From assembly GCA_028868715.1 (NCBI GenBank), contig JAGWUB010000001.1:53480-117479 (forward strand): DNA of 64,000 nt, in the 5' to 3' direction. Shown here in pieces: positions 1 through 54,679 of this stretch. Each line of letters begins with the position of its first letter. Position 1 is the first letter of the stretch. Below the pieces are notes generated by a model that had not been told where the DNA came from, made no database searches, and saw nothing but the letters and a program-made list of their open reading frames with translations. This DNA comes from Patescibacteria group bacterium (GTDB lineage Bacteria; Patescibacteriota; Minisyncoccia; Phycocordibacterales; UBA9973). The position numbers and the translations under genes were made by a program.

Positions 1-604
1 GTAAAATAGCGTGGACGATCAGGGAGTCGACTATTTTTACCACTGGTAAATCTTCGGCCATTTTTTGTAACTCGGCTTCGGATTTTTCATCTGATTTCCC
101 TCCAGCCTTACTGATAGAATCTGATATATTAGAAGATTCTTTTTGAATAATATTTTGAAATTCGGCCTGGAGAGTTTTTCTATACTGTACCAACACAGAT
201 CGAATCGAAGCGGCGTCAGTAAGCCTAGGTAAAATTTTTAACCCAGAACGTTTCTTTATAAAATCAATCACTGGCAGGTCATCGACATCCAGCATGGCCA
301 CTTCTAAGCCCTCCGCAGTTTTTTTATAAGCAACTATATTATAATTACGAGCAATTGGTTCAGGGATGAGAGAGAGCACAGCAAAATCAATCTTCTCTTT
401 AACCAAATTTATAAATGGTATTCCTAAAACAAAAGCTTCAGTTTGTTTTAAATCAGTTTCGGATATTTTTCCTTCAGAAAGTAAAAAGTTCCCGAGTTTT
501 TGTTTTTTGGTTTCAGCTTTTTTTACCGCCGCATCGAAATCCTCGCGGGTGATAAGACCTGATTTTAAAATAAATTTTTTAAATTGTTCTTCGTCAATTT
601 GCAT
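1..604 (-). CDS. Type IV pilus / type II secretion assembly ATPase, N-terminal part (PilB/GspE family). The gene runs off the window, so the 3' end is missing.
   Basis: The reverse strand reads MQIDEEQFKKFILKSGLITREDFDAAV...LLSEGKISETDL...LPVVKIVDSLIVHAIL. That is the GspE_N/T2SSE_N architecture followed by the start of the ATPase N2 domain (PVVKLVN-like). It is absent from the ORF track because no stop codon falls inside the window. Confidence 0.6.
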   Translation of the reverse strand, partial: MQIDEEQFKKFILKSGLITREDFDAAVKKAETKKQKLGNFLLSEGKISETDLKQTEAFVLGIPFINLVKEKIDFAVLSLIPEPIARNYNIVAYKKTAEGLEVAMLDVDDLPVIDFIKKRSGLKILPRLTDAASIRSVLVQYRKTLQAEFQNIIQKESSNISDSISKAGGKSDEKSEAELQKMAEDLPVVKIVDSLIVHAIL

Positions 605-611
605 CACTTAC

Positions 612-648
612 ATTATACCAAAAAAATCCCCGCATAGGGGATTTTTTT
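612..648 (-). terminator. Rho-independent terminator for the 659..2014 gene (stem 626-642, U-run from the A-run at 620-625). A TATAAT -10 at 612-617 (minus) sits just upstream of the pilB start.
   Basis: atccccgcataggggat is flanked by an A-run and a T-run. ggtataatg lies immediately before the minus-strand ATG at 604. Confidence 0.55.
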
Positions 649-658
649 GGTAGCTTAT

Positions 659-2014
659 CTAGTTTTCCTTGTATATCGGTTTTTTCTTTATTTCTGAGCA
701 GGAGGCAGAGGTTGCTCCTTGAGTACATGTCCAGGTGAAAGTAGAAATACCACTATGGATTGCGCCAGGATCACCGACCGAGCAAGAATAATGTATAGCT
801 GGATTTGAACACTTTGCAACGCCACAATTATTTGGTGGTACTACTTGGCCTTCCGTATGATCATTGTTGCAAGTGCCGACGGTAGGCATACAGTGCCACA
901 CAAATGGGTCGTCGCAAGTGCCAGAGCCAGTCTGGGCCCAAAAACTACCTGAACCGTCCGAACACGTAACTGAAGCAGAGGCTAGCTGTAAATTATTATG
1001 ATAAAGATAAAAAGTAGTAAGTCCAGATATAATTGGAACACTGGTGGGGATAGGGTTAGATGAAAGATAAGAGACGTGAACATTGTCAGGATTGTTGTGG
1101 GTCACTTCTGTCGTACCACCAGAAACAAGATTAGAGGTAGTCCAAGAAATTAAGGTTTGGAAAGGATTAGTAGTGGTGTCGCAATTGCCGACACTGATGG
1201 TCCCTGTTGGCATGGGGCCTGTGCTACAAATAGTGCCATTGAAAATAGTTCCTGTCTCACAAGTAGCTGTAGGGTTTTTTTCAGTAAGTTTTGTATCGTT
1301 ATTATAAAGGAAAAAATATCTATCACTACCATAAGTAATCGGGTAAGTGGCTGAACCAAAATTTCCAGTGCCGACGGTAACATTTGTCGGGGTTGTGACT
1401 TCAGAGGTGCCGACTGGATTTGTCGTGGTCCAGTTTAAATTAGTATTACAAGTGCTAGCTCCGGACGGGATTATACAGTCAGTGGCAGTAAGGGTGCCAG
1501 ACATATTAGAAACACCGGTGATAGTAAAATTTCCAGACTTAGTATCGGCGGGAAGTCCACCATGGGTATTAAGGGTGGTGTCGTTATATACACTTGCTCT
1601 TATCGTATAGGTTCCTGCTGGCCAAGAACTGACGTTCACGTTATCTGTTGCAGTGTAGGGGCCTTCCCAGCAAGCTAGCGGATTGTTACAAAATGGTGAG
1701 TGCCAAGTTTGAAAATACATTTGGGCGCCAGTGCTATTGTTGGTAATGGTATAGTCCACTCTGGTTGCAGTATCTTGATAACCAAAGCCAGCAGTTCCTT
1801 CACAGGAATAACTCAATGTTCCAGAAATTGTTATGCCGATAGTTACTGGGCTATTGTATGTTCCAGTAGGTTGATCAATGGAATTTATAGTAGGGTCAAT
1901 CTGTGGATCGCTAGATGGATCACAGGAAGCAAAAGCTACATTTGCTTTAAAAAAGACTCCAGATGCAACCATTAAGCTCACTAAAACCAAGAGGCTAAAA
2001 AATTTAAATTTCAT
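659..2014 (-). CDS. Secreted Thr/Gly/Ser/Cys-rich repeat protein, paralog A; function unknown, possibly a surface or pilus-associated adhesin.
   Basis: N-terminal signal peptide MKFKFFSLLVLVSLMVASG...AFA. The body is low-complexity T/G/S-rich with conserved Cys. It has an internal TLTATDCIIPSGASTCNTNLNWTTTNPV repeat shared with 2104..3528. Both proteins end in HY(S/N)C(S/T)V...TW(T/S)C...ASC(S/T)E(I/L)KKKP...EN. Confidence 0.55.
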   Translation of the reverse strand: MKFKFFSLLVLVSLMVASGVFFKANVAFASCDPSSDPQIDPTINSIDQPTGTYNSPVTIGITISGTLSYSCEGTAGFGYQDTATRVDYTITNNSTGAQMYFQTWHSPFCNNPLACWEGPYTATDNVNVSSWPAGTYTIRASVYNDTTLNTHGGLPADTKSGNFTITGVSNMSGTLTATDCIIPSGASTCNTNLNWTTTNPVGTSEVTTPTNVTVGTGNFGSATYPITYGSDRYFFLYNNDTKLTEKNPTATCETGTIFNGTICSTGPMPTGTISVGNCDTTTNPFQTLISWTTSNLVSGGTTEVTHNNPDNVHVSYLSSNPIPTSVPIISGLTTFYLYHNNLQLASASVTCSDGSGSFWAQTGSGTCDDPFVWHCMPTVGTCNNDHTEGQVVPPNNCGVAKCSNPAIHYSCSVGDPGAIHSGISTFTWTCTQGATSASCSEIKKKPIYKEN

Positions 2015-2103
2015 AATATTGTTATATTATATACAATCTAATAATGTTTAATTCTATACTTAATTATACTAGAGTGGGTTTTAAATAACAATAAAATATA
2101 TAG

Positions 2104-3528
2104 CTAGTTCTCAATAAACGCAGGTTTTTTCTTTAATTCTGTACAGGATGCGGTAGTGCCACCATTACTACCAGGGCAAGACCATGTCCAGCTAGAAATA
2201 TTGGATACACCACCAGTGCCTACACCTGCTGGAACAGTACAATTGTAATGAGTGGTTGCGCAGACGCCGTTTGTTGCCGCTGCACAGGATTGAGAAGCTC
2301 CCCCACCGTCATAATTAGGGTTAGTTGGGTCTGTGCAAAGAAGTCCCGTACCTGATGGTGAAGGATTGGTGCAAGTACGAGTTTGTAGACCACCTGCACA
2401 AGCGCTCCAAGCACTCCAACCTCCGTTTATGTTAGGGGTGCACACACCACCGAGCCAAGACGTCCCCGCAGCACAAGTTCCCGTTGGGGCAACTTGAGTA
2501 AGTAGCACAGCGTTGTTGTATAGATAAAAGATTATGCCACTTCCGTTAGTAATAGAGTAAGTTGAGGAACCTGAATTTCCTGACCCTGCGGTAATATTGG
2601 TCGGAGTTGTGACAGATGAAGTGGCTACTGGATTTGTCGTGGTCCAATTTAAGGTACTACTACAAGTACTACCTCCTGAAAGAATGGTGCAATTAGAGGC
2701 AGTGAGGGTGCCGGTCATCCCTGGAGCACATGTGGAACCATTCCAAACAGTCCCTGCGGCGCAAGTTCCCGTGGGGGCAGCTTGAGCAAGTAACACAGCG
2801 TTGTTGTATAGATAATAGATTCTTCCATTGCCATTAGTGACCAAAAAAGAAGTAGCTGTACCTGAATTTCCTGACCCTGCGGTAATACTCTTAGGAGTTG
2901 TTACCGCTGAAGTAGCTACTGGATTTGTTGTGGTCCAGTTTAAAGTAGTAGTACAAAAGGAAGCCCCTGAGGCAATGGTACAATTAGAGGCAGTAAGTGT
3001 GCCGGACATGGGACCTGTAACTGAAAAGGTTCCTGAAGCACTGATTGTAAATCCCGTCGAAGGATCCCAAGCATAAACTGTTACCGTGTGTACACCACTT
3101 GAAAGTCCAGTAGTGTTAACTAAAAAACTATAAGAATAAGTATATGGTTGATAAATAGAACTACCACCAGGCGGTAAGCAATCAGCTGGTTGATTTATGC
3201 CACCCTGAGTTATGGTCATACTAAAACCATTCATTACTCCAGAATCTATTTGATATTGAGGGGTGTCTAAGGTATGCGCAGTTGCCGGTAGTGCTGGGAT
3301 ACCTGGATCGCAACCAGCTACGGGAAATTCGTCTTGAGTGGACCCTCCCTGTCCCGAGCCAGAAACAGTAGTAGAGGTTGTAACATTACTAGATGGAACT
3401 ATTGAATCAACACTAAGAGCAGCAACCGAACTAGTCACAAATGCCTGGGCATTGTTATGGAATGGAACTAAGAAAAAAATAGCAATAAAGACAGAGAGTG
3501 TTATGGATGATAAGTGTTTGAATTTCAT
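2104..3528 (-). CDS. Secreted Thr/Gly/Ser/Cys-rich repeat protein, paralog B, containing two ~90-aa tandem internal repeats.
   Basis: Signal peptide MKFKHLSSITLSVFIAIFFLVPFHNNAQA. The unit TGTLTASNCTI(A/L)SG(A/G)S(F/T)C(T/S)(T/S)TLNWTTTNPVATS...YYLYNNAVLL(A/T)Q(A/V)APTGTCAAGT occurs twice. The C-terminal module is shared with 659..2014. Confidence 0.55.
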   Translation of the reverse strand: MKFKHLSSITLSVFIAIFFLVPFHNNAQAFVTSSVAALSVDSIVPSSNVTTSTTVSGSGQGGSTQDEFPVAGCDPGIPALPATAHTLDTPQYQIDSGVMNGFSMTITQGGINQPADCLPPGGSSIYQPYTYSYSFLVNTTGLSSGVHTVTVYAWDPSTGFTISASGTFSVTGPMSGTLTASNCTIASGASFCTTTLNWTTTNPVATSAVTTPKSITAGSGNSGTATSFLVTNGNGRIYYLYNNAVLLAQAAPTGTCAAGTVWNGSTCAPGMTGTLTASNCTILSGGSTCSSTLNWTTTNPVATSSVTTPTNITAGSGNSGSSTYSITNGSGIIFYLYNNAVLLTQVAPTGTCAAGTSWLGGVCTPNINGGWSAWSACAGGLQTRTCTNPSPSGTGLLCTDPTNPNYDGGGASQSCAAATNGVCATTHYNCTVPAGVGTGGVSNISSWTWSCPGSNGGTTASCTELKKKPAFIEN

Positions 3529-3688
3529 AATAATTATATAGTTATGCTTAAAATTTCATAAAGTTAGTTTATATGTTAGTAATTATACTAGATATAATAG
3601 AAACCAAACTAGGTAATGTGGATAACTATAAATAGTGAACGTCAGTATTGCATTAAAATAATACCCGTGATATACTACTTTAGTAATG

Positions 3689-14368: not shown

Positions 14369-14502
14369 GCCCAAATGATAACACTTTAATTTCCTATAGC
14401 AAGCCCCCACACCTTTTGTTTTTAACGAAAGGTGTAGGGGCAAGTACTATTTTTTTGTTTAATTCTGTGCTAGAATATTCGAGTGTTAATAATTTAATAT
14501 TG

Positions 14503-14635
14503 TTTTATCGAGAGTGGTGGTAGAGAATTGGCTCAGCGACCCCACAGCAACCTAAAATATAAGGTGCTAACTCCAACCCTAACCGGGAAAGATAATTAGT
14601 CATTATATTTCCTGTGTTATCAGGAATTTTTTGTT
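14503..14635 (+). ncRNA. SAM-I (S-box) riboswitch with a terminator expression platform, upstream of metK.
   Basis: P1 is ttatc...gataa. It contains AGAGtGGtGGtAGAGA, GCAACC, and AAGGTGCTAACTCC (consensus AAGGUGCCAAUUCC). The terminator hairpin ttcctgtgttatcaggaa plus tttttt is at 14609-14633. Confidence 0.65.
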
Positions 14636-14650
14636 TTCAATTATCTCACC

Positions 14651-15628
14651 ATGAAAAAAACAGCCGAATTTGTAAGCCCAAAACATCCCGACAAAATTTG
14701 CGATTTCATCGCCGACAGTATTTTAGATGCTTACTTGGAGGGCGACAGAGAAAGCCGAGTTGCGATTGAAATAATGGGCGGACACAATTTGATCACTATC
14801 AACGGTGAAGTTACTTCCAAGAGTAGTCCGAATATAGAAAAGCTGGTGAAAGAAATTGTCGGAGAAAGTTATAAAGTTGTAACCAATATTGTTTTACAAA
14901 GTACAGAAATTGCAGAAGGTGTGAACACCGGCGGAGCAGGAGACCAAGGAATTATGAAAGGTTATGCCACAAATGAGACAGCCGAATACCTACCACTAGA
15001 ATACGTACTGGCTCGTGATTTGTGCCAAAAAATATTTAATGTGTATCCCTACGACGGCAAAACCCAAGTAACTATAGAGGGTGACAAAGTGCTCACTGTG
15101 GTTGCCAGTTTTCAAAATACAAAAAATGACGAACTTTTAAAATTAACTAAAGAAATAATTAAATCTAATGAATATTTGATAAATCCAGCGGGAGAATGGA
15201 CATATGGTGGTTTTGACGCGGACACCGGACTTTCCGGTAGAAAATTAATCATAGACAACTATGGTCCGCAAATAGCAATCGGTGGTGGCTCTTTTTCAGG
15301 TAAAGATGCCACCAAGGTAGATCGCTCTGGTGCCTATATGGCGCGTTATGTCGCTAAAAATTTAGTTGCGAGTGGATATGGCAAAGAAGTATTAGTCTCT
15401 GTGGCGTATGCTATCGGCATGGCTGAACCATTGATGATAGAAGCTGTAAATGAAAAGGGTGAAGACTTGGCAGATATTGTAAAGAAAAATTTTGATTTTA
15501 AACCACTTGCCATCATCACCCGCCTCGGCTTGCGTGATCCGATCTTTCGCCAAACCGCCACCTATGGCCACTTCGGCAAACCAAATTTACCATGGGAAAA
15601 AGTTGAGAAAATAAAAGTAAAAAAGTAA
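14651..15628 (+). CDS. metK: S-adenosylmethionine synthetase, a short 325-aa form.
   Basis: Carries HPDKICD, GDQGIMKGYATNET, GLSGRKLIIDNYG...GGGSFSGKDATKVDRSGAYMARYVAKN and YGHFGKP motifs. Confidence 0.85.
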   Translation: MKKTAEFVSPKHPDKICDFIADSILDAYLEGDRESRVAIEIMGGHNLITINGEVTSKSSPNIEKLVKEIVGESYKVVTNIVLQSTEIAEGVNTGGAGDQGIMKGYATNETAEYLPLEYVLARDLCQKIFNVYPYDGKTQVTIEGDKVLTVVASFQNTKNDELLKLTKEIIKSNEYLINPAGEWTYGGFDADTGLSGRKLIIDNYGPQIAIGGGSFSGKDATKVDRSGAYMARYVAKNLVASGYGKEVLVSVAYAIGMAEPLMIEAVNEKGEDLADIVKKNFDFKPLAIITRLGLRDPIFRQTATYGHFGKPNLPWEKVEKIKVKK

Positions 15629-19296: not shown

Positions 19297-20811
19297 ATGT
19301 CCGGGAAAAGATATAAAATTAAGAATAAACATTTTATACATGAAATTGAAACCCGGAAATCTAGTTATTGGGAAAATATAAGAGATAAAAATAAACTCAA
19401 AATATTCAAAGACACGGTAGCTTCCGTGCCAGCCTACCGTTTGTTTTTAAAAAAACACTCCATTGATCCCAAAAAAATTCGCACGATAGCAGATCTAGCT
19501 CATGTGCCCGTTACAACTAAAGATTCCTATCTAAGATCTTTTTCTGTGGCTAACCTTTGTAAGAAAGGAACACTTATGCACCCCCTAGTTTTCACAGCAA
19601 CTTCTGGATCTACGGGCGAACCATACTATTTTCCTAGATTTGAAAAAATAGATAGAGAATACTCTATTTTAATTGAATACTATCTTTCCCAAAACAAAAT
19701 ATCACTGGAAGGGCCAACTCTAGTTGTCGTTTGTTTCGGTATGGGAATTTGGATTGGTGGAGTTATCACCTATCAGGCTTTCGAGGCGGCAAGTCGAGAA
19801 AGCGGATATCCAATATCAATTATCACTCCAGGAACAAACAAAGAAGAAGTTTTAAATTCTCTTGCAAAACTTGCACCAAATTTTTCACAAACTATTCTGA
19901 TTGGCTACCCACCCTTTATCAAAGACCTGATAGACGAGGCGGCAAGTAAAAAAATAAATCTTAGTAAGTTAAATATGCGTTTAATGTTTGCCGCCGAATC
20001 ATTCTCAGAAAAGTTTAGAGATTACTTGGGTAAAAAGGCAAAAATTGACAACATTTACCGTGACACATTAAATGTATATGGTAGTGCTGACATCGGTGCC
20101 ATGGCATGGGAAACAGGAGTATCAATTCTAATTAAACGGATACTTACTAAAGATAAAAAATTATATGCAGATTTTTTTCCATCGGTTTCACAAATGCCAA
20201 CAATGGCTCAATACAATCCACACTTTATAACCTTTGAGTCAGTCGATGGAAATATTATACTGTCAGCTGAAAATGCTCTGCCGCTAGTTAGATACGCTAT
20301 TGGAGATCATGGTGGAGCTATAAGTTTTAGAGAAGTAGAGAAAAAATTTAAGAAAAATGGTTATGATCTAAAAACACTTGCAAAAAAAGCTGGTATCACT
20401 TCAATCCCAGAATTACCATTCGTGTATATTTACGAGCGAAGCGATTTTTCAACAAAGTTTTATGGTGCAATTGTTTTTCCAGAATATATAAAGTCTGCAC
20501 TGGAACGAGATAAGGTTGAGAATTTAGTTACCGGAAAATTTACTATGTTCACTCGCCACGATAAAAAACATAACCAGTTTCTAGAAGTAAATGTTGAGCT
20601 CAAAAAAGGAATACATGCTGACAAAAATTTAAATAAACTAGTCCAGAATCTTGTCTTTCAAGAACTTATAGAGCGAAGTACTGAGTGTAGAAATAACGCC
20701 CAGCTTTTAGGCAAAAAAATGCTACCAAAAATTACCTTTTGGTCATATGAAGATTCTCTATATTTCAAAACTGGTATCAAGCAAAAGTGGGTGAAAAAAA
20801 CACCAAAATAG
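19297..20811 (+). CDS. PaaK/CapK/F390-synthetase-family adenylate-forming enzyme.
   Basis: VPVTTKDSYLRSF corresponds to the PaaK LPxTxKxDLR motif, and TSGSTGEPYYFP is the AMP-binding motif. Length is 504 aa. Confidence 0.65.
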   Translation: MSGKRYKIKNKHFIHEIETRKSSYWENIRDKNKLKIFKDTVASVPAYRLFLKKHSIDPKKIRTIADLAHVPVTTKDSYLRSFSVANLCKKGTLMHPLVFTATSGSTGEPYYFPRFEKIDREYSILIEYYLSQNKISLEGPTLVVVCFGMGIWIGGVITYQAFEAASRESGYPISIITPGTNKEEVLNSLAKLAPNFSQTILIGYPPFIKDLIDEAASKKINLSKLNMRLMFAAESFSEKFRDYLGKKAKIDNIYRDTLNVYGSADIGAMAWETGVSILIKRILTKDKKLYADFFPSVSQMPTMAQYNPHFITFESVDGNIILSAENALPLVRYAIGDHGGAISFREVEKKFKKNGYDLKTLAKKAGITSIPELPFVYIYERSDFSTKFYGAIVFPEYIKSALERDKVENLVTGKFTMFTRHDKKHNQFLEVNVELKKGIHADKNLNKLVQNLVFQELIERSTECRNNAQLLGKKMLPKITFWSYEDSLYFKTGIKQKWVKKTPK

Positions 20812-31503: not shown

Positions 31504-31577
31504 CGGGCTGTAGTATACCGGTAGTACAAGCGCTTTGGGAGCGTTTAGACTGGGTTCGATTCCCAGCAGCCCGACCA
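31504..31577 (+). tRNA. tRNA-Pro (anticodon UGG), CCA encoded.
   Basis: Manual cloverleaf: acceptor CGGGCTG/CAGCCCG, D-stem GTAT/GTAC, anticodon stem AGCGC/GCGTT with loop TTTGGGA, T-arm CTGGG-TTCGATT-CCCAG, discriminator A, then CCA. Confidence 0.75.
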
Positions 31578-31598
31578 GTTGTTTAAAATGATCATATT

Positions 31599-31669
31599 GC
31601 GGGGTTAGTTTATCGGTAAAATAACAGTTTTCCAAACTGTGGTGAAGGGTTCGACTCCCTTACCCCGCA
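31599..31669 (+). tRNA. tRNA-Gly (anticodon UCC).
   Basis: Acceptor GCGGGGT/ACCCCGC, D-stem GTTT/AAAT, anticodon stem ACAGT/ACTGT with loop TTTCCAA, T-arm AAGGG-TTCGACT-CCCTT. CCA is not fully encoded. Confidence 0.75.
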
Positions 31670-31775
31670 CCGAAGTAAGGGATAAGCAAACAAATTTATT
31701 TGTTTGCGGAGGGAGGAGAAAGGCTTTTCTGTGTTGAGCGAAGTGAAACAGAAAAGCACCTGGCTATGTAATAGC

Positions 31776-31794
31776 CGACTCCCTTACCCCGCAC
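31776..31794 (+). repeat. 19-bp perfect direct repeat of the tRNA-Gly 3' end (cgactcccttaccccgcac; first copy 31652-31670).
   Basis: The exact duplication lies 124 bp downstream of the tRNA. Two strong hairpins sit between the copies (gcaaacaaat-tta-atttgtttgc and gcttttctgt...acagaaaagc). Confidence 0.6.
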
Positions 31795-31802
31795 TAGATT
31801 AG

Positions 31803-32216
31803 TCACAAAATAACATCACTGACTACTTTTACCTTAGCTTTTTTGGTTTTTAAGTCTAAATATACAACCAAAAGATCCACCTGCCACTCTATGTCATCAT
31901 CTATTTTTTTGTCTAAAAGATAAGTTTGGATTGTCCGTGATAAACGTTTCATTTTCCATGGGTGCATATTATCTTCTGGATTATATCCATCTTCCCCTTC
32001 TGATTTTACCAAGGTTTCACTCGGCAAATGAGAAACTGATTTCACTTCCACAAAATAAAGTTTGTTGTCTTTCTTTGCAACAATATCAATTTCACCCCAT
32101 TTTTTAGTGTAATTTCTATCCAATACTGAAAAGCCGTGTTTCACGAGAAACTTTTCAGCTATATTTTCACCAATTTCTCCTGTTTTTTGTTTTTCAGAAG
32201 TAAAAACTTTTGGCAT
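31803..32216 (-). CDS. YraN/UPF0102-family predicted endonuclease.
   Basis: EIGENIAEKFLVKHGFSVLDRNYTKKWGEIDIVAKKDNKLYFVEVKSV matches the YraN consensus (GE.AA..YL...G..IL.RN.R...GEIDLIA...L.FVEVK.R). Confidence 0.65.
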   Translation of the reverse strand: MPKVFTSEKQKTGEIGENIAEKFLVKHGFSVLDRNYTKKWGEIDIVAKKDNKLYFVEVKSVSHLPSETLVKSEGEDGYNPEDNMHPWKMKRLSRTIQTYLLDKKIDDDIEWQVDLLVVYLDLKTKKAKVKVVSDVIL

Positions 32217-32454
32217 TTTGGTTGTGTTTCATAAGAAACATGTTTCACATGAAACCTTTTATCGAAATTTTGTCTTTTAGTAAAATATCCTTATATAACA
32301 ACATATTTTCAATATAATGACACTAAAAAGACAGATTATAAATATGTCCTTTATACACATACTAACAGTTTTATCCACAGTTTTGTGTAAAACCCTTATA
32401 GCTAAAGCTTTTGCAAAAGGACAATAATTTTAAATAACTTATAGGCTATTTTTG

Positions 32455-32526
32455 TGCACCCGGAGGGATTCGAACCCCCAACGACGGTTCCGAAGACCGG
32501 CGTGATATCCATTTCACTACGGGTGC
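32455..32526 (-). tRNA. tRNA-Arg (anticodon UCG), tentative.
   Basis: The minus strand gives GCACCCG-TA-GTGA-AATGGATA-TCAC-G-CCGGT-CTTCGGA-ACCGT-CGTT-GGGGG-TTCGAAT-CCCTC-CGGGTGC-A. The acceptor and T-arm are good. The anticodon stem has one terminal mismatch. Confidence 0.6.
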
Positions 32527-32648
32527 AGCGAATATAAATTATACCTTATTTTAATCTAATATCAAAATATCTTTATTTTACAAGCTTAAAACGTAAAATT
32601 GCAAAGTGCTGTATATAGTATATAATTATTAAATTAAAACTAATCAGC

Positions 32649-32719
32649 GCGGTGTTGGTTTAGTGGTAGAACACGTCCTTGCCAAGGATGAGACAGGAGT
32701 TCGATTCTCCTACGCCGCA
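32649..32719 (+). tRNA. tRNA-Gly (anticodon GCC).
   Basis: Acceptor GCGGTGT/ACGCCGC, D-stem GTTT/GAAC, anticodon stem CGTCC/GGATG with loop TTGCCAA, T-arm AGGAG-TTCGATT-CTCCT. This closely matches a canonical bacterial tRNA-Gly(GCC) from memory. Confidence 0.75.
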
Positions 32720-32730
32720 CAAGTTCCAAA

Positions 32731-39092: not shown

Positions 39093-41684
39093 ATGCCTCA
39101 AGAGAACGAAAAATCAGACTCCGAACTAAAAAATATTGTGCAAAAAGCCATGGCAGATATACGTTCTGCGAGAGGAGAGAGAGAAACTCAAAAAGACATT
39201 GTCGGTAAACCTATTTTGATTCCTGCTGATAAAAACATAGATCAAAAAATTGATGCTAGAAGAGAAAGAATGGAGAGATGGAAAAAGCAAGCTATGGAAA
39301 AAGGGAGTGGAACTCCCACTTCTCATATTGAAGCGGAAAAGACAGTGAGGGTCATGCGCTCGAATGGGGAAATAGAGGACGGATGGAAGCTGGTGAATAT
39401 AGTAGATGGATCAGCTATTGTAACAAAAAAAGATAGAAAGTCTGGGAAATTATTGAGAAAAGTAATTTCTGAAGCTGAGCTTGAAATGTTTAACGCGAAA
39501 GACTTTGATAAAGAGGTCTCAGAGCTTCCTAAAAACGAAGAACCTGTGCCATCTCCACAACCTGAACTAGAACCAATAGAAGGAAGTTTGTCGGAAGATA
39601 TTTTAAATGATGCAAGGCAAAAATATGCCGAAGAATACAAAAAATTCATGGCTAGTGCTGGAAAGCTAACCAAATGGAAAAGAGCTCTGGTGGGAGTAAC
39701 AGTAAAAGATTCAAAAATCCCTCCAGAATTGAAAAAATTAGAAGAAGATTATAATGGGGCTGCAGTAGTTTTGGGTAGGGAAATGTATGATAAGAAATTT
39801 AAGGAATTAGAATTAGATAATCTTAATCTGCCAAAAAAATTATATGAGGAGAGGGTTGTTGCATTGGAACAATATAAACAAAAGGAAATTTTTACTAAAA
39901 TAATAATTCAGGAGCAAGAAGAACTAGCAAAGCTTGAAGTAAAAAACCTACCTCCAAAAGAAAAGGGAATAGTTGGGAAGAGTTGGAACTGGTATTTAAA
40001 ACAACCAAGATGGAAAAAACTGGCAATGACCACAGCCTTATCGGTAGGAGTTTTTGCTATAGTTGCTCCTGGCACCATAGCTGCAGCCGGAGGGCTTACT
40101 GCTTTTGCTACTATCAGAGCCGTGCGCGGAATAGCAGGAAGCGTGGTAGGGCAAACTGCCGCTAAATCTATCGACTGGCTATTTAAAGATAAATCTACTG
40201 AAAGAAGAATTCAAGACGAGAAAGATTTGGCTGAAGAGTTCGGGCAAGCGCTTGATTATGCTGATCTTAATCATGAAGATATAAAACATATTAAGGATTC
40301 ACATGCCAAAGCTTTAAAATTTGAACAAATGAGTAAAAAGGCAAGGATCTTAGCAAAAGCCGGAGTCGGTTTGTTTGCGGGTGGATTGGCGTCGGCTGGA
40401 GCAGGTGGATTGGCGTCGGCTGGAGCCGATTATATGTTTCATGGTAGTACTCCAGAAATATTTACTCCTGGATTAACTAAACCCGGAGAAATTCCTCCAC
40501 AGACAGAAACACCATCTTCGACACCAGAAGCTAATATTCCAAAAGCTCCTTCTCTCCCAAATGAGATGCCCACAACAAAGCCTGGAGTGACGCTCGAAAA
40601 TGCCGTAGTCCACAAAGGACAAGGAATTGAAAATGCATTTATAAAACAAATTGAAACGAATCCAAAACTTGCCCAAGATTTAGGATTCAAAGGCGATATA
40701 AACGACACTAAGGCGTTGCATTTATTTGCTGGAAATGAAGCTCACAACATTGCGCTAAAGACTGGTTATGCTGACGCAGCCGGAAATGAAATCCGAGTCA
40801 CCGGAGGAGACAAGGTCGCTTACGAGCTAAAGATGGAAAATGGAAAAATTGTAGTAGATGAAAAATCACTCGATGGAAAAATAATAGAAACCCATCACGA
40901 AGGAGATAAATTTGAAACAAAATTAAATGATTACGAATATAAAAAAGGTGCACCGGTTGTAGAAAATAAACCTGCAGGTCAACACCAAGTTGAATACAAA
41001 CATACTCCACTCGAACAGCATAAAATAGAAACAATTCATCAAGATTTGCTGGAAAAATATAACAGGCCTCAACACAACATTGTAGATCATAGTTCTCAGC
41101 CAGATCATATTACCAAAACTAGGATAAATGAATTTAAAACGGGAACCACAGAATTTAAAACGGGCACGACGGTAATGGAAACTGGAACGACGATCAAAAC
41201 AGGCACAGAAATACGAACAGGGGTGAGGCCAACAACTGAAACTATGCAAACTCCCAAAGGCGCACCCACACCTGAAGAAATAAAGGCAAAAGTTGAACCT
41301 ATAACCCAAAAAACAATTATAGATACTAACCCTAAAATAAAAGGAACTCCTTTTGAGCAAAATTCTTATAAACTAAGTCCCGAACAATTAAATAAAGTTT
41401 ACGAAACTCATACCAAAAATATAAATTTTATTGCTTCTAAGAATGATTGGGGTTATGAAGGACCAGCAAGCGCCAAAAACTTTGTCGGCACAAAACCTAT
41501 CGAAAATGATGCCTTGGTCCCATACTTAAATAAGTTATTAAAACTTACTGGAGAAAAACCTACCATCTTGCTGACTCTGACTGGACCAAAAGATGAAACA
41601 GTAGAACAATACATGACTAGAGTTTTACAAATCGCAGTCCAAAGAGGAACGCCAATCGATCAATTACAAATAGAAAATCGATAA
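39093..41684 (+). CDS. Large (863 aa) hypothetical membrane protein. It has an N-terminal cytoplasmic coiled-coil region, a central Gly/Ala-rich TM hairpin and a C-terminal repeat-containing domain.
   Basis: TM segments LAMTTALSVGVFAIVAPGTIAAAGG and GVGLFAGGLASAGAGGLASAGA. Short tandem repeats EFKTGTTEFKTGTTVMETGTTIKTGTEIRTG. No enzymatic motif recognised. Confidence 0.55.
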   Translation: MPQENEKSDSELKNIVQKAMADIRSARGERETQKDIVGKPILIPADKNIDQKIDARRERMERWKKQAMEKGSGTPTSHIEAEKTVRVMRSNGEIEDGWKLVNIVDGSAIVTKKDRKSGKLLRKVISEAELEMFNAKDFDKEVSELPKNEEPVPSPQPELEPIEGSLSEDILNDARQKYAEEYKKFMASAGKLTKWKRALVGVTVKDSKIPPELKKLEEDYNGAAVVLGREMYDKKFKELELDNLNLPKKLYEERVVALEQYKQKEIFTKIIIQEQEELAKLEVKNLPPKEKGIVGKSWNWYLKQPRWKKLAMTTALSVGVFAIVAPGTIAAAGGLTAFATIRAVRGIAGSVVGQTAAKSIDWLFKDKSTERRIQDEKDLAEEFGQALDYADLNHEDIKHIKDSHAKALKFEQMSKKARILAKAGVGLFAGGLASAGAGGLASAGADYMFHGSTPEIFTPGLTKPGEIPPQTETPSSTPEANIPKAPSLPNEMPTTKPGVTLENAVVHKGQGIENAFIKQIETNPKLAQDLGFKGDINDTKALHLFAGNEAHNIALKTGYADAAGNEIRVTGGDKVAYELKMENGKIVVDEKSLDGKIIETHHEGDKFETKLNDYEYKKGAPVVENKPAGQHQVEYKHTPLEQHKIETIHQDLLEKYNRPQHNIVDHSSQPDHITKTRINEFKTGTTEFKTGTTVMETGTTIKTGTEIRTGVRPTTETMQTPKGAPTPEEIKAKVEPITQKTIIDTNPKIKGTPFEQNSYKLSPEQLNKVYETHTKNINFIASKNDWGYEGPASAKNFVGTKPIENDALVPYLNKLLKLTGEKPTILLTLTGPKDETVEQYMTRVLQIAVQRGTPIDQLQIENR

Positions 41685-45932: not shown

Positions 45933-47930
45933 ATGAGCTTCGAAAATAAAACAACTCAAAAATTAATTTCCGCTCTCTTAATTATTTTGACTCTGATACC
46001 GACTGTTTTAATCTTTGTGCCAAAACAAGTAACTGCGCAGGGGCTCCCTGTGACCGCTTTTTGCCCCACCGCAACAAACCCTCAAGCTGTGTGTGCAAGT
46101 GAGGGCACTTCGTTTTGGCATAAAATTCTAACAGGTATGGTGGTTGGTACTAGTGCTACAACTGCAACAAATACAACTAAAGAAATAGTCACTGAGGCTT
46201 TAAAAGAAATCGTCCGAGTCGCGGCGCAAAGGTTGCTCGCGCAAATGACTCAAAGTACCGTAAACTGGATAAATACTGGCTTTCACGGAGCGCCACTTTT
46301 TGTGGAAAATCCTGGATCTTTCTTTGCTGATATAGGTAAAACCGAACTAAGAGACTTCGTAAATATAGTAGGCTATGACAGTGTTAATCAGCCTTTTGGT
46401 AAAAGCTTTGCTTTAAATGCTATAAATAGTTACCGAAGCACCTTTGCCAACAATGCCCAATACTCTTTTAGTAAAGTCACAAATGATCCTGTTTTGCTCA
46501 ATCACTTGAGGACAAATTTTAGCACCGGTGGTTGGGATGCATTTTTAATAAATAGTCAATTCCCTCAAAACAATTACCTCGGGTCTCAAATGATATATAC
46601 CGATGAACTGGCTAGAAGGTTGAGTGGCACAAATCCGACTCAAACAGATATAATCAAACAAACCTTGGCTCAAGGACAAGGATTCCTATCTCCACAGAAA
46701 TGTTTGACTAACCCTGATTATAATAATCTCAATAATCAATTTCATAAACCAACTTTCAAGTGTTCACCACCGACAGAAGATTGTAGTAATGACCCCACTG
46801 GCAACTGTGTTAGTCGTGAAATTATACGATGCAAGAGGGAAGAGTCTACTTGGGATGCAACCAATTTTTGTCCAAACAACCCAGCAGACGGAACTCCCGG
46901 CTTAGTAAATACTACTCCTGGATCAGTGGTAGCTTCATCTATAATGAAAGCGGTAAATGTGCCCATCGACAAAGCAACATTGGCTGGGACAGTGGGTAAT
47001 AGTTTGACTGATGGCTTGTCCGCTATTTTTGATGCCTTACTAAATAAACTAGTCTCTTCTGGATTAAATGCAATTACAAATCCAACGCACAACACAAACA
47101 GTGCTAATAATTCTACAAACAACGTAGCTGGCACAGGCTTTGACTGGACTGGAGCGGGGCAAACAGTAGCGCTTGGCACATTTAAAACAGATGTCCAAAC
47201 AGCAATAAACAGCGCCAACCAAGAGCTTAAATTGATAGACAATACTGATACAAATACTCCTGGAATTTTACAAATATTTAACCAAATTTGGCCAAAAACC
47301 GGAGAACTAGATATGTGCTTACCGGGACCAAACATTGGATGGGAAAATAGAGTAGATACAGACATACAAAATTCAAATGCGAATCCAACAACAATAGCTC
47401 CCGTAATAACTTCATTTAAAACATGGGTAACTAATAAGATGAGGGCAGAACTTCCAGACTCAAAAAACTTTTTGAGTACGGTTAATTCTATTGCCGAAGT
47501 AAATAAACAAGCGACTGACTTAAACAATAGGGAAAGTACAATAATAAATACTTTAACAAAACTTCAATCAATACAGGATGAATTGAGTGGTATAACCACT
47601 CAGCCAGACGCAGGCTCGGGGAGCGACACAGCTTTGACAAATTTGAAGCAAAGATATGATGGAATGCTGGTAGACCTATCTAGTCCTATCACTGTAGCTG
47701 ATATGCGAAATAAATTGGCTGACGCCAAAGACAACTTAACCAACTTGGGCACGCTCATTACACAATGCACCACAGAGCGAACTGCAAAAGGCTGGGCAAA
47801 CCCCGGAGGAGCAGATAGTGTGTTTAATAATTCCAGTACCGAAAAAAATGTATTTTGTAATTCGTACCCAAGTGTGCCAGTATCTTGTGATGCAGTTTTC
47901 CAGACTAGTGCAGAAGATTACAAAAAATAA
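45933..47930 (+). CDS. Large secreted or membrane-anchored protein (665 aa), hypothetical; a T4SS-associated surface component.
   Basis: N-terminal signal/TM LISALLIILTLIPTVLIFVP. It is Cys-containing and Thr/Asn-rich. No enzymatic motif. Confidence 0.5.
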   Translation: MSFENKTTQKLISALLIILTLIPTVLIFVPKQVTAQGLPVTAFCPTATNPQAVCASEGTSFWHKILTGMVVGTSATTATNTTKEIVTEALKEIVRVAAQRLLAQMTQSTVNWINTGFHGAPLFVENPGSFFADIGKTELRDFVNIVGYDSVNQPFGKSFALNAINSYRSTFANNAQYSFSKVTNDPVLLNHLRTNFSTGGWDAFLINSQFPQNNYLGSQMIYTDELARRLSGTNPTQTDIIKQTLAQGQGFLSPQKCLTNPDYNNLNNQFHKPTFKCSPPTEDCSNDPTGNCVSREIIRCKREESTWDATNFCPNNPADGTPGLVNTTPGSVVASSIMKAVNVPIDKATLAGTVGNSLTDGLSAIFDALLNKLVSSGLNAITNPTHNTNSANNSTNNVAGTGFDWTGAGQTVALGTFKTDVQTAINSANQELKLIDNTDTNTPGILQIFNQIWPKTGELDMCLPGPNIGWENRVDTDIQNSNANPTTIAPVITSFKTWVTNKMRAELPDSKNFLSTVNSIAEVNKQATDLNNRESTIINTLTKLQSIQDELSGITTQPDAGSGSDTALTNLKQRYDGMLVDLSSPITVADMRNKLADAKDNLTNLGTLITQCTTERTAKGWANPGGADSVFNNSSTEKNVFCNSYPSVPVSCDAVFQTSAEDYKK

Positions 47931-47935
47931 TTTAA

Positions 47936-50374
47936 ATGCGAAAAATACTTAAAAAATTAATTACGGCTGGTTTCATAGCCATCATACTAGTTGGACTGTT
48001 TAGCTCGCCAGCTAAAACTCAAGCGCAGACGGGATCACCAACAAAAGGAACCTGCACTATAACAGATACTAGTGAACGCCCTCCTATTGTTTCTAATGTA
48101 CCAAATCAAACATTTGATCAATGTACTGGACTAAAACCAACAACAGGTAATGTTGCTTGGGCAGCAGATGGTGGTGGAGCAACCGTAAATGCAGCACCAG
48201 CGGGTCCGACAGGAACTTGTACTACAGTTGATACAAGAGACACTGTAGATAAAACTCAATACCCAACTGGAGCTACAACCGTAGCAAAAACTACTCAAGC
48301 AGATTGTACAAAAATGAACCAACCTGGCCTAGTGGCAACTTGGACAGCAGATGCGACTGACAGCACTAGTAATATGTTTAAGCAGTGCTCACTTGATGGA
48401 AATTTTAGTATTGATAAATGTACCGTGTATGTTCTTTATATTATTTTTTATGAATTACCTGCTTACATTTTATGGTTAACGGCCTATATATTTAACGCCT
48501 CCATACCTTTAACTATCGGCACTGTTTTGTATCATAATAATTTTTTACCGGAAGCATGGAGAATCGTACGAGACTTTTCAAACATATTCTTTATCTTGGT
48601 GTTGCTATACGTGGCAATCAAAATGATTTTAGGGTTCGGTGGAGGAGAAGTAAAGAAAATGGTTGTGAACGTCGTGATCGCTGCCCTTCTCATCAACTTC
48701 AGCATGTTTATGACTGAAGTAGTAATTGATTCTTCAAATATTTTAGCTTTAATTTTTTATAATAAAATTACTGTGAATCCTGCTCAAACCAGTACCGAGA
48801 GTGATACCCCATATTACCCAACTTTAAATAAAGACAAAACGGCTATTGAAGAAAAGGATATTGCGGGCGGGATAGTAAAAGGTTTTGATATAACCAAATT
48901 TCTTAGCCCTGATTCAGTAACTCTACAAGTGGGCGACAAGCCTGCGGGTAGCGCTATGGCCACTGCGAAAAACACAGCGACTGGTACTGTGATCGGATCA
49001 ATTTTTGGACCCCTAGGTGGAGTCGCTGGGGGAGCTATCGGTTATTTATTTTCTGCTTCGGCATCAGGGAATCAAACTGGTCTTCAAGTAGCCATAATCT
49101 TCACGGCGTGCGCTGTGTTCCTAATGGCATCTTGGGCTTTTCTAATAGCCGGATTTGCATTTTTGGGAAGATTAATTGAACTTTGGATTTTAATTATCTT
49201 TTCACCTTTTGCTTTAATGTCTTTTTCTGTACCAAGATTAAAAAGTATAAAATTTTTAGGTTGGGATGCTTGGCTAGAGCGCTTGATGCATACTGCTTTT
49301 ATGGCGCCAATTTTTATGTTTTTCTTGTTACTGATATCAAAACTGGTACAAATAGATATCTTGGGCGGACTAACAAATACAGATAAGCCACCTTCAATTG
49401 CTCATGCATTACTTATCCTTGCAATTCCAGCAATAATATATCTGACCATGCTTTACAAAGCCACTGAGTATGCCAAAAAAAATGCGGGCGAATTTGGGGC
49501 AGCGGTAGTCAAGTATGGAGAAATGGCGGCAGTGGCTGTAGGTGGGTTGGCATTGGGTGCAGCGTCTGGAGGAACATCGATGGCAGCTACGGCAACTATT
49601 GGTAGAGCTGGTGCTGCTGCTGCTAATTCAGGGTGGGCTAAAAAATGGGAATCAAAAGGGTGGGGTGGTGAATACTTTAGGAGAGCAGCTACAGCTGTTG
49701 GCTCATCAAGCTTCGATGTTCGTGGAATAAAAATAGGAGGTAAAGCTTTGGGAACAACTATAGGAGCTGGTGAAGGAAGAAAAGATGGATTTACAGAAAG
49801 AAGGAAAAAACAAGTAGAAAATAGACAAAAGAGAGCTAAGGATCTTGAGGTTGGAGAGGATGAGCCATTAAAACAAAAGTTAAATAATTCAGAAAATGAC
49901 TTACAGCAAATGATGAATAAGGTTGCAAGAGATTTTGAAATAATCGATAAAGACTTGGAAGGTCAAAGACAAAAGAAAAACGATGCTGTAGTTGGGTCAA
50001 TTGAAGAAGCGACAGCTTCGAGAGAAATTGAGAGATTAAATAATATAAAGAGAGATATAAATGATGGCAAGGCCTTTAATTATGTAGATAGTGCTGGCGG
50101 TATTCATAATGTAAGTTCTACAACTGTAATAGGGGGAGATAATAATGGAAAAACTATAAAACAAATGCAAAGAGAAGTAATTCCTGAACAAAAAAATGAT
50201 GTAACAAAAGAAAATAGAGCAAGAAAATGGACTTACGCAGATACCACGCGAAGTAAGTTTGGGCAGGCAAAAAGTTTTGTGTTCAGTGGTGGAACACATA
50301 GTTTTGCAGGAGCACATGAAGCTGCTCACGCCATAATAATGGAAGCAAAATTGCCAGACAATGTGGCAAAATAA
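47936..50374 (+). CDS. VirB6/TrbL-like polytopic membrane protein (812 aa). It has an N-terminal secreted Thr-rich domain, then ~6-8 TM helices, then a charged C-terminal region.
   Basis: Signal peptide. A hydrophobic core YVLYIIFYELPAYILWLTAYIFNASIPLTIGTVL...FFILVLLYVAIKMILGF...VVIAALLINFSMFMTEVVIDSS...IIFTACAVFLMASWAFLIAGFAFLGRLIELWILIIFSPFALM is typical of TrbL/VirB6-type channel subunits. The call rests on architecture and context only. Confidence 0.5.
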   Translation: MRKILKKLITAGFIAIILVGLFSSPAKTQAQTGSPTKGTCTITDTSERPPIVSNVPNQTFDQCTGLKPTTGNVAWAADGGGATVNAAPAGPTGTCTTVDTRDTVDKTQYPTGATTVAKTTQADCTKMNQPGLVATWTADATDSTSNMFKQCSLDGNFSIDKCTVYVLYIIFYELPAYILWLTAYIFNASIPLTIGTVLYHNNFLPEAWRIVRDFSNIFFILVLLYVAIKMILGFGGGEVKKMVVNVVIAALLINFSMFMTEVVIDSSNILALIFYNKITVNPAQTSTESDTPYYPTLNKDKTAIEEKDIAGGIVKGFDITKFLSPDSVTLQVGDKPAGSAMATAKNTATGTVIGSIFGPLGGVAGGAIGYLFSASASGNQTGLQVAIIFTACAVFLMASWAFLIAGFAFLGRLIELWILIIFSPFALMSFSVPRLKSIKFLGWDAWLERLMHTAFMAPIFMFFLLLISKLVQIDILGGLTNTDKPPSIAHALLILAIPAIIYLTMLYKATEYAKKNAGEFGAAVVKYGEMAAVAVGGLALGAASGGTSMAATATIGRAGAAAANSGWAKKWESKGWGGEYFRRAATAVGSSSFDVRGIKIGGKALGTTIGAGEGRKDGFTERRKKQVENRQKRAKDLEVGEDEPLKQKLNNSENDLQQMMNKVARDFEIIDKDLEGQRQKKNDAVVGSIEEATASREIERLNNIKRDINDGKAFNYVDSAGGIHNVSSTTVIGGDNNGKTIKQMQREVIPEQKNDVTKENRARKWTYADTTRSKFGQAKSFVFSGGTHSFAGAHEAAHAIIMEAKLPDNVAK

Positions 50375-50383
50375 AATAAATTT

Positions 50384-50878
50384 ATGACAGAAAAATTACA
50401 ACAAATAATTAAGAGAGAGGTAGCAAAGTTGCCAAAATATACCCAGGAAGCAATAACTTCCTTGGATTGGGGAAATGTTATAGAACAAATCGGTAAAAAA
50501 TATTCTTTTAATGAGAGTGAGTTAAATGATCTACATGTACAGACATTACTGGTGTTGATAGGCCTTACAGACCCTAATTTATATGCAAAAAATATAGAGA
50601 ATGAAGTAGGTACTACTAAAGATGAAGCAGAAAAAATTGCAAGTGAAGCGTTTGAAAAAATATTTGAGCCAATCAACAATATTTTAGAAGAAAAGATTAA
50701 GAAAAATATGAAAGATAAAAAAACAGATGTGGTACAAAACGTTAATTTCATTCTTTCTGGCGGAGATTATTCTGTTTTTGTAGATGATGCAAATGTGGGC
50801 TCTCTTAATAGCCAAAAAACTGATAAACTAATAGGTACTTCAAATATTTTGGAAACAAAAAAAAGGTTAATAGATTAA
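50384..50878 (+). CDS. Small soluble hypothetical protein, member 1 of a tandem paralog pair.
   Basis: Shares LP...ITSLDW...GKKY.F.E.EL..L...TLL.L.GL..P with the next ORF. Confidence 0.4.
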   Translation: MTEKLQQIIKREVAKLPKYTQEAITSLDWGNVIEQIGKKYSFNESELNDLHVQTLLVLIGLTDPNLYAKNIENEVGTTKDEAEKIASEAFEKIFEPINNILEEKIKKNMKDKKTDVVQNVNFILSGGDYSVFVDDANVGSLNSQKTDKLIGTSNILETKKRLID

Positions 50879-50888
50879 TTAAATTTAT

Positions 50889-51599: not shown

Positions 51600-51612
51600 G
51601 GTGTAAATAATT

Positions 51613-52038: not shown

Positions 52039-52106
52039 ACCTTAGGCACTAGGCTCTAGCGAGAAAGCTAAAGCCTAACGCCTAGAGCCTAGAGCCCTAG
52101 AAAAAT

Positions 52107-52748: not shown

Positions 52749-52750
52749 TT

Positions 52751-54625: not shown

Positions 54626-54679
54626 GGCAAGAAAGTGGGTTCTGGGCGGTAGTTATTAGAAAATGATACAATTATTGTT

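Follow-up and report, generated by a model that had tools for sequence, protein, structure and literature searches.

A tandem pair of immunoglobulin-like repeat proteins with predicted export signals beside pilB in a Patescibacteria genome, and the conserved tail at their C-termini

In a 64,000-nucleotide window from the genome of a Patescibacteria group bacterium (assembly GCA_028868715.1, contig JAGWUB010000001.1; all coordinates are positions in this window), two adjacent genes, labelled A and B here, very probably encode exported modular proteins of the cell surface. Both products end in a short tail that is conserved to the residue among their relatives and is likely to be a functional signal in its own right. 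Our tentative reading is that A and B are surface adhesins held by non-covalent docking of this C-terminal tail, with the minor-pilin set of the neighbouring pilus genes as the most plausible docking partner. Related loci and homologous proteins are referred to by L- and P-numbers, respectively.

The initial annotation described two neighbouring minus-strand genes for proteins of 451 and 474 amino acids (aa), each with a signal peptide, and both open reading frames (ORFs) were found (Table 1). A and B correspond at 100% to KGL67_00265 and KGL67_00270 of an NCBI metagenome-assembled genome named 'Patescibacteria group bacterium' (312,596-bp contig), and to the identical homologues P0033 and P0001. 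They are 38% identical to one another across residues 158-451 of A; Thr, Ser, Gly and Asn make up 44-48% of their residues, and each contains 18 Cys. Both N-termini consist of MKFK, a hydrophobic segment of about 18 residues and an AxA site (VAFA/SC in A and AQA/FV in B, the slash marking cleavage). This segment is the sole hydrophobic peak of either protein in a Kyte-Doolittle scan, and the signal peptides are thus borne out on a by-eye reading of basic start, hydrophobic core and AxA site. The resemblance extends to the DNA: a 24-nucleotide stretch at the two gene starts (2003-2026 and 3517-3540) is 83% identical, and both genes open with ATGAAATT(T/C)AAA, encoding MKFK, behind a similar AT-rich leader. 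Such matching 5' ends suggest a common expression signal or a duplicated 5' end.

Residues 28-31 of A (F-A-S-C) resemble a lipobox, which B lacks. A lipoprotein anchor is unlikely, given that a lipobox-like motif occurs in just 8 of 113 full-length family members and that the Cys count is even in 106 of the 113. The even count suggests that the lipobox-like Cys of A is itself disulfide-bonded and, together with the rarity of the motif, fits disulfide-bonded proteins cut by signal peptidase I. In genomes of the Candidate Phyla Radiation (CPR), MdbA-like oxidoreductases have been reported to be enriched, often with VKOR encoded beside them (bioRxiv 10.1101/335083). A pilin identity for A and B was rejected, as both carry AxA-type sites and no class III GFxxxE signal; signals of the G/FxxxE type do occur in downstream genes (KQG/LSIIE and KKG/FALIE).

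Alignment of the repeats, which had been described as Thr/Gly/Ser-rich Cys repeats of about 90 residues, confirmed them and gave two units of about 96-104 residues in each protein, with scores of 120-151 bits against the unit profile and 75% identity between the two units of B. The units of A and B match the pattern GTLT..C.I..G.S.C..L.W.T.NP...FYLYNN...C..G..W.G..C, and the second unit of A lacks the second Cys of its first pair. At the DNA level the repeat has a period of 288-291 nucleotides and 81-83% identity. AlphaFold2 modelled all four units as beta-sandwiches with predicted local distance difference test (pLDDT) values >90, and fold searches returned tandem immunoglobulin (Ig)/FN3 arrays, adhesins and S-layer proteins among them. 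The N-terminal region of B was modelled with low confidence to about residue 110-130 and as beta-rich beyond.

Between the Ig-like units and the C-terminal module, residues 365-401 of B align to WSAWS segments of P0009 at residues 160-205 (E 2e-8) and 550-597 (E 0.033), the latter overlapping the stretch where Pfam calls TSP_1. B retains the pattern WSxWS...C...RTC...P.P..G..C of the thrombospondin type 1 (TSP1) repeat (PF00090), and relatives hold true TSP_1 domains that pass the Pfam threshold with up to 60 bits. Unlike these, the copy in B is gapped at 11 alignment positions and lies beneath Pfam detection, with no TSP_1 match at E <= 1, and A has none. The shared C-terminal module reported in the initial annotation is present in both proteins as C...HYxC...W(T)WxC...C.E followed by KKKPxΦxEN (Φ, hydrophobic residue). 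Neither Pfam nor NCBIfam assigned a family to unit, knob or tail when A, B, ten relatives and the unit by itself were scanned, and profiles of the unit and of the knob matched no PDB sequence. Judged from their sequences, the unit and the knob are uncatalogued, and the proteins appear otherwise to be of a familiar kind, that of bacterial Ig-repeat adhesins.

The tail was characterised by its residue frequencies in four sets of C-termini. A penultimate Glu is present in 60 of 75 first-round homologues, against a share of 1.4% for Glu among all residues. Among the 38 ORFs with complete C-termini that an independent metagenome scan recovered with the unit alone as query, 31 have it; of the other seven, five resemble fragments made by frameshifts, another has ..GVFDD at its end and the last is unexplained. 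The penultimate Glu recurs in 89 of 126 new representatives and in 168 of 223 non-redundant C-termini, where most exceptions resemble truncated fragments. Across these 223, position -6 is Pro in 65% and otherwise Leu or Ile, position -4 is Phe, Ile or Tyr in 85%, position -3 is Ile or Lys, and the last residue, although Asn in 45%, varies among N, Q, D, E, R and L; Lys is common at -7 to -9. These frequencies define a conserved core, Φ-x-E-x-COOH, preceded at position -6 by Pro or another hydrophobic side chain. KKKP is the mark of one subgroup and is absent from another, whose tails read L.I.EN, IIER or DPVVNEN. The earlier suggestion that the basic KKKP end could be a sorting signal is retained as regards a conserved C-terminal tail, and revised as regards its core and its type, which is not that of a sortase signal.

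Both the module and the tail recur widely in other proteins. The tail ends 44 of 50 unit-bearing ORFs in contrast to 16 of 351 other ORFs (Fisher p = 1.6e-38), and it is also found on neighbouring secreted proteins in which the unit profile detects no unit. It follows at least five unrelated modules, namely the 4-Cys knob, an Ig-like module, CxNGAxNPPxC repeats, TSP1-like stretches and an InlB-B-repeat-like end. A similar C-terminal Ig-like module in other proteins, two of which are named as Acidobacteria-type metagenome-assembled genomes, stops right after its last strand (...ATVTVTV(Q)) and has no tail; this control came from a third homology search, with the Ig-like module plus tail as query, which returned only short proteins and fragments. 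The tail codons vary synonymously (CCG, CCA or CCT for Pro; GAA or GAG for Glu), and both TAA and TAG are used as stops, which indicates that selection acts on the peptide; a role of the tail as a DNA-level signal was rejected on the synonymous variation and on the presence of the tail on upstream tandem copies. Together, the varied preceding modules, the tail-less control, the synonymous codons and a modelled coil of low pLDDT identify the tail as an autonomous element.

The taxonomic range of the tail was assessed by scanning one genome per species from 185,579 species for the codon pattern of KKKPxFIEN, with no stop codon in the query. Of 38 matches, 10 were in Patescibacteria records, all within ORFs of 331-1022 residues and all with a stop codon immediately after the motif. 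The other 28, from other phyla, fell for the most part in short ORFs that look non-coding, and no long ORF ended in one. The tail was found here only in records named as Patescibacteria. Four unrelated loci (L019, L025, L026 and L030; Erysipelotrichales-type genomes) carry a nearly identical stretch of about 44 codons (...NISRSIFLLKSFSKKKPTFIENEYSI) with a chance match to the tail pattern. This stretch looks like a conserved non-coding element, and Rfam returned nothing for L030 6200-7000.

A sortase anchor was rejected. No LPXTG-like pattern occurs in A, and in B the matches are confined to the N-terminal part, with none near the C-terminus. A C-terminal membrane helix is likewise absent, the Kyte-Doolittle maximum over the last 100 residues (19-residue window) being 0.35 in A and 0.49 in B, and the longest hydrophobic run in the last 60 residues is four residues. 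NCBIfam, sorting-signal models included, has no model that matches the tail of A, B or ten relatives, and a literature search returned no described C-terminal sorting signal of Patescibacteria. A word-indexed search of 5.8 billion sequences with a 56-column alignment of knob and tail gave nothing significant, the query being too short for a database of that size. The tail is thus new among C-terminal sorting or docking signals: it lacks a membrane helix, is constant to the residue and does not appear in the papers and databases searched.

Beyond the window, 1.84 billion proteins were searched with the unit profile, which matched 1,040 representative proteins; the E-value is <= 1e-10 for 693 of these and <= 1e-30 for 248. 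Copy number, a variable that the initial annotation had singled out, ranges from 1 to 11 units per protein, in proteins of 150-3,566 aa. Named members belong to Nomurabacteria, Pacebacteria, Minisyncoccia and the 'Patescibacteria group'. Their further domains include CARDB, InlB-B-repeat-like, Big_2, DUF11, VWA (P0044), Peptidase_M23 (P0006) and TSP_1, a set that reads as a typical adhesin toolkit. Viral contigs contained neither the tail pattern nor the unit, and a phage origin is unsupported. Six proteins (P0076-P0078, P0084, P0090 and P0102) rank among the strongest unit matches, with up to 11 units, and have Ala/Arg-rich N-termini but no tail. Given that such N-termini suggest high-GC organisms, the unit may exist outside Patescibacteria too. 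At the other extreme, a 153-aa family member in L087 has a signal peptide, one Ig-like module and the tail RRKPKFIEN; it adjoins a 3,149-aa Peptidase_S74 protein (L087 1-7225) and is separated from TIM by an IS200-type transposase gene.

We next consider the genomic setting of A and B. The position directly upstream of pilB noted earlier is upheld, as positions 1-604 encode the N-terminus of PilB and pilB is the next gene in most related loci. The full PilB has 586 residues with MshEN and T2SSE domains (L038) and scores 520 bits against TIGR02538. In the contig from the same genome PilC (T2SSF) and a prepilin (KQG/LSIIEIIV) come after it, while nusA, pyrophosphatase, trigger factor and clpP lie upstream of B on the opposite strand. 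The usual order in related loci is nusA, pointing away, then one or two tandem family genes, pilB, pilC, a GspH-like minor pilin and further pilin-like genes, these being two small ones (148-162 and 165-169 aa) and a protein of about 420 residues with a hydrophobic pilin-like N-terminus, and finally TIM and PGK. Tandem paralogues of one genome have signal peptide and tail in common. Directly downstream of the family genes, pilB is found in seven of the eight loci behind the ten KKKPxFIEN matches, and in the eighth (L020) just 51 pilB codons are present; the same order recurs in L038, L042, L043, L045, L046 and 12 metagenome loci. L043 and L045 have other genes between nusA and the family gene, which nonetheless adjoins pilB. 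The last gene of the pilus cluster (L046 14027-15286; L045 14299-15594) encodes a protein of about 420-430 residues without a family-database match, whose Gly/Asn-rich repetitive body reads like a beta-helix. It may be a tip pilin of large size, like ComZ of Thermus.

The family genes vary far more than their surroundings. Across loci, identity among family proteins is 31-56% over portions of the sequence, in contrast to 82-88% for NusA, 76-85% for PilB and 63-78% for PilC, which marks the site as a hypervariable island. This lends partial support to the earlier proposal of diversifying surface adhesins: predicted export, repeat-built bodies, tandem paralogues and fast divergence beside conserved flanks all agree with it.

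These data allow us to propose how A and B might work. The cell carrying them, a member of the Patescibacteria of Nomurabacteria/Paceibacteria type, would export both proteins by the Sec pathway, and disulfide bonds would stabilise them. Each would present a fast-evolving N-terminal beta-sandwich head on a stalk of two Ig-like units, with two Cys pairs per unit, followed by a Cys-rich linker (in B probably a degenerate TSP1 repeat), the knob and the tail. The order of signal peptide, variable head, Ig-like stalk, knob and flexible tail follows the plan of a surface adhesin that is fixed at the C-terminal end. The tail would act as a self-contained docking signal made up of Pro or Φ at -6, Φ at -4, Glu at -2 and the free carboxylate. 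We suppose that it adds a short beta-strand to a conserved partner lying beyond the membrane, and that basic residues form salt bridges with its Glu and its carboxylate end. With the C-terminal end fixed, stalk and variable head would point outward and could bind a host cell or a surface. The leading candidate for the partner is the downstream minor-pilin set, in which the first pilin, being GspH-like, is a minor pilin and which would serve in tip formation or priming. That the tail partner is the pilus is nevertheless rather doubtful in our estimate. More specifically, it is a speculative and somewhat unlikely proposition that Φ-x-E-x-COOH is the recognition element of a sorting or docking system so far undescribed and specific to Patescibacteria, a signal lacking any membrane helix which hands Sec-exported adhesins to the type IV pilus tip complex.

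If docked on the pilus, A and B would be functional analogues, and not family members, of PilY1, TcpF and CofJ; we propose this by analogy. Like PilY1/PilC1, they are non-pilins predicted to be exported by Sec, are encoded with a minor-pilin set and have a variable N-terminal and a conserved C-terminal part, and some relatives contain a VWA domain (P0044). The PilY1-type combination of a Sec signal peptide and a minor-pilin gene cluster is therefore found for A and B. Unlike PilY1/PilC1, they have no PilY1/PilC beta-propeller in Pfam or NCBIfam, the models showing instead a 4-Cys knob of about 45 residues and the tail, and their genes are upstream of pilB rather than inside the minor-pilin operon. 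TcpF and CofJ of type IVb pili are reported to be secreted, to be encoded in their pilus operons and to interact with the tip minor pilin (PMC6048534, PMC9565799, PMC10120004). Both groups combine Sec export (predicted for A and B) with a gene in a pilus cluster and a terminal peptide that is short and flexible; in TcpF and CofJ this peptide is the recognition signal. The signal of TcpF and CofJ is N-terminal, however, and the bacteria that make them have two membranes, whereas the motif of A and B is at the extreme C-terminus; no sequence similarity links them, and the mature N-termini of the A/B family are not conserved.

In their overall plan A and B also resemble LPXTG (MSCRAMM-type) adhesins and proteins with PEP-CTERM, GlyGly-CTERM or PGF-CTERM, which combine a signal peptide, a variable head, an Ig-like stalk and a C-terminal signal. 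As with those C-terminal sorting signals, one conserved signal is common to proteins of otherwise different domains. Unlike them, A and B have no LPXTG or PEP motif, membrane helix or basic cytoplasmic tail. In subunits of chaperone-usher pili, alternating hydrophobic residues at the C-terminus add as a beta-strand, and the carboxylate is anchored by basic residues. The tail of A and B likewise has alternating hydrophobic residues just ahead of the free C-terminus. The chaperone-usher pathway is an unrelated two-membrane system, however, and the resemblance concerns only the proposed type of interaction.

Several observations weigh against docking on the pilus, or against parts of the scheme. 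Signal-peptide cleavage was called by eye and hydropathy rather than with a trained predictor. The strong hairpin between A and pilB (-24.7 kcal/mol, z = -5.3, with no shuffled sequence as stable) makes their co-transcription doubtful; a consensus scanner did not list it, perhaps as its T-run belongs to the stem. A pilus-tip role is argued by analogy and has gene order as its sole basis, which is frequent but not universal. In one group of loci (L041, L044, L055, L070, L072, L073, L075, L078 and L080) family genes with L.I.EN, IIER or DPVVNEN tails are flanked by nusA and the tuf-S10 operon, pilus genes being absent from the vicinity, and KKKP-type tails occur at sites without a pilus operon in L052, where the next gene is TIM, L087 and L088. 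The loci come from fairly close relatives, as the PilB identities show, and so are not independent; their gene order could be inherited. In the tuf-side group the island beside nusA holds several secreted proteins (for example L041 1120-10463 and L044 4318-9980).

A coat or S-layer-type protein is an alternative that we regard as possible but doubtful. Here the tail, alone or together with the knob, would tether the protein to the wall or S-layer or join subunits head to tail by strand donation, and adjacency to pilB would be inherited gene order without functional meaning. The persistence of the tail where the pilus operon is missing favours such a role, as does nusA, a neighbour as constant as pilB. 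So do the terminator-like hairpin and the promoter-like sites of the genes themselves, as for abundant structural proteins, although promoter-like sites are no more numerous in the region than shuffled sequence predicts and the one in Table 1 is a consensus match only. The Thr/Ser/Gly/Asn-rich Ig-like arrays resemble Sap and HPI, two S-layer proteins of solved structure, and the archaeal cell surface glycoprotein 7ptp, and S-layers have been reported in Patescibacteria (bioRxiv 10.1101/2024.05.28.596244). On the other hand, no domain of a wall-binding type, such as SLH, CWB2 or LysM, was found by Pfam or NCBIfam in the two proteins or ten relatives. Sizes and domain content vary enormously, which suits a lattice former poorly, and it is pilB, not nusA, that the family gene keeps as neighbour in L043 and L045. 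The Cys-richness of A and B is unusual among S-layer proteins and uninformative on a pilus. Whatever the role of the proteins, it is likewise possible, though not probable, that the tail partner is the cell wall, the S-layer or the protein itself.

The invariable place of Glu at -2, the variable last residue, as expected of a leaving group, and the confinement of the motif to the very C-terminus could also reflect covalent sorting, in which a transpeptidase or carboxypeptidase would remove the last residue and join the Glu end to peptidoglycan, lipid or protein. The logic would resemble that of sortase, or of the L,D-transpeptidase attachment of Lpp, and is pure analogy; the locus has no conserved candidate enzyme, A and B lack the membrane helix that all known sorting enzymes of this kind need, and we consider it improbable. 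Release from the pilus, as for TcpF and CofJ, with transient binding of the tip minor pilin before the protein is shed to act on a host cell, is similarly improbable. Predicted Sec export, the pilus gene cluster and the short flexible terminal motif would suit it, as would enzyme domains in some relatives, such as Peptidase_M23 in P0006. An outer membrane is apparently absent, however, no PilQ having been found in CPR genomes (10.1101/335083), so that a pilus piston would not be needed for release; the head-stalk-anchor layout suggests retention, and the motif is C-terminal rather than N-terminal. Finally, the tail might have no function of its own: it could complete the domain before it as a final strand, or arise from DNA signals, for instance a terminator or the pilB promoter. 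An A-rich region does lie just ahead of the hairpin. Yet the range of domains that precede the tail, the same Ig-like module without it in proteins named as other phyla, its modelling as coil, its synonymous codons and dual stops, and its occurrence on the upstream one of two tandem copies, which is not followed by pilB, make this extremely unlikely.

Patescibacteria account for a large share of bacterial diversity, and their few cultured members live attached to other microbes. To our knowledge, the molecules by which they recognise a host are mostly unknown. Type IV pili have been implicated in the attachment of Saccharibacteria to other microbes (PMC11623550, PMC10633639). The locus described here offers a concrete candidate for host recognition, with about 1,000 protein clusters, a hypervariable head, a conserved stalk and a residue-conserved tail. 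If the tail is a docking signal, it provides a simple sequence rule for finding surface-displayed Patescibacteria proteins in metagenomes, a handle for identifying the partner and a testable model of adhesin-head exchange in tiny cells with reduced genomes. If hand-over to the pilus tip holds, the pilus of an epibiont could display exchangeable, fast-evolving heads for host recognition; and a tail that served only as an envelope anchor would still be a new kind of anchor, one without a membrane helix.

Table 1. Positions of genes A and B, their parts and adjoining features in the window (slash, predicted cleavage; dots, intervening residues)
Feature	Position	Strand	Basis and remarks
Gene A	659..2014	(-)	451 aa; ORF; paralogue of B
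Gene B	2104..3528	(-)	474 aa; ORF; exported modular protein (predicted)
A predicted signal peptide, aa 1-29 (..NVAFA/SC)	1928..2014	(-)	sequence reading; helix 4-20 in AlphaFold2 model
A N-terminal beta-sandwich head, aa 30-165	1520..1927	(-)	AlphaFold2 model, moderate confidence
A Ig-like unit 1, aa 166-264	1223..1519	(-)	56-59% identity to B units; pLDDT >90
A Ig-like unit 2, aa 265-368, divergent	911..1222	(-)	about 31-33% identity to other units; profile 119.9 bits
A Cys-rich linker, aa 369-401	812..910	(-)	pLDDT <50
A C-terminal 4-Cys knob, aa 402-442 (C..IHYSC...TFTWTC...C.EI)	689..811	(-)	alignment; pLDDT 72-87
A tail KKKPIYKEN-COOH, aa 443-451	662..688	(-)	modelled coil, pLDDT down to 44
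B predicted signal peptide, aa 1-29 (MKFKHLSSITLSVFIAIFFLVPFHNNAQA/F)	3442..3528	(-)	sequence reading; model helix 9-18
B variable N-terminal region, aa 30-170	3019..3441	(-)	aligns poorly with A; no Pfam/NCBIfam match
B Ig-like unit 1, aa 171-268 (GTLTASNCTIASGASFC..LNWTTTNP..YLYNN..C..G..WNG..C)	2725..3018	(-)	pLDDT >90, all-beta; DNA repeat families D1, D3
B Ig-like unit 2, aa 269-364	2437..2724	(-)	75% identity to B unit 1; pLDDT >90
B degenerate thrombospondin-type-1-like stretch, aa 365-415 (GGWSAWSAC..GGLQTRTCTNPSPSGTGLLC)	2284..2436	(-)	alignment to P0009
B C-terminal 4-Cys knob, aa 416-465 (C..THYNC...SWTWSC...C.EL)	2134..2283	(-)	alignment; pLDDT 75-89
B tail KKKPAFIEN-COOH, aa 466-474	2107..2133	(-)	modelled coil, mean pLDDT 65 over last four residues
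PilB/GspE-type assembly ATPase, first 201 codons, cut at window edge	1..604	(-)	ORF, homology
Perfect 16-bp hairpin with A-/T-run flanks, terminator-like	616..652	(-)	between A stop and pilB start
Promoter-like site TTGTTA-17-TATAAT, B-A gap	2063..2091	(-)	10/12 consensus matches

Elsewhere in the window, an S-adenosylmethionine (SAM) riboswitch (RF00162, 56.5 bits) at 14502-14598 (+) lies just upstream of an ORF at 14651-15628. A run of genes on the same strand at 45933-56825 (+) includes a TraG/VirB4-like P-loop ATPase (52751-54625) and two ORFs of 665 and 812 aa without a Pfam match; it may represent a monoderm-type type IV secretion system, as has been reported for Patescibacteria (PMC12102498). 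Two further large ORFs without a Pfam match are at 39093-41684 (+; 863 aa) and 19297-20811 (+; 504 aa), and a cluster of four tRNA genes (Pro-TGG, Gly-TCC, Arg-TCG and Gly-GCC) occupies 31504-32720.

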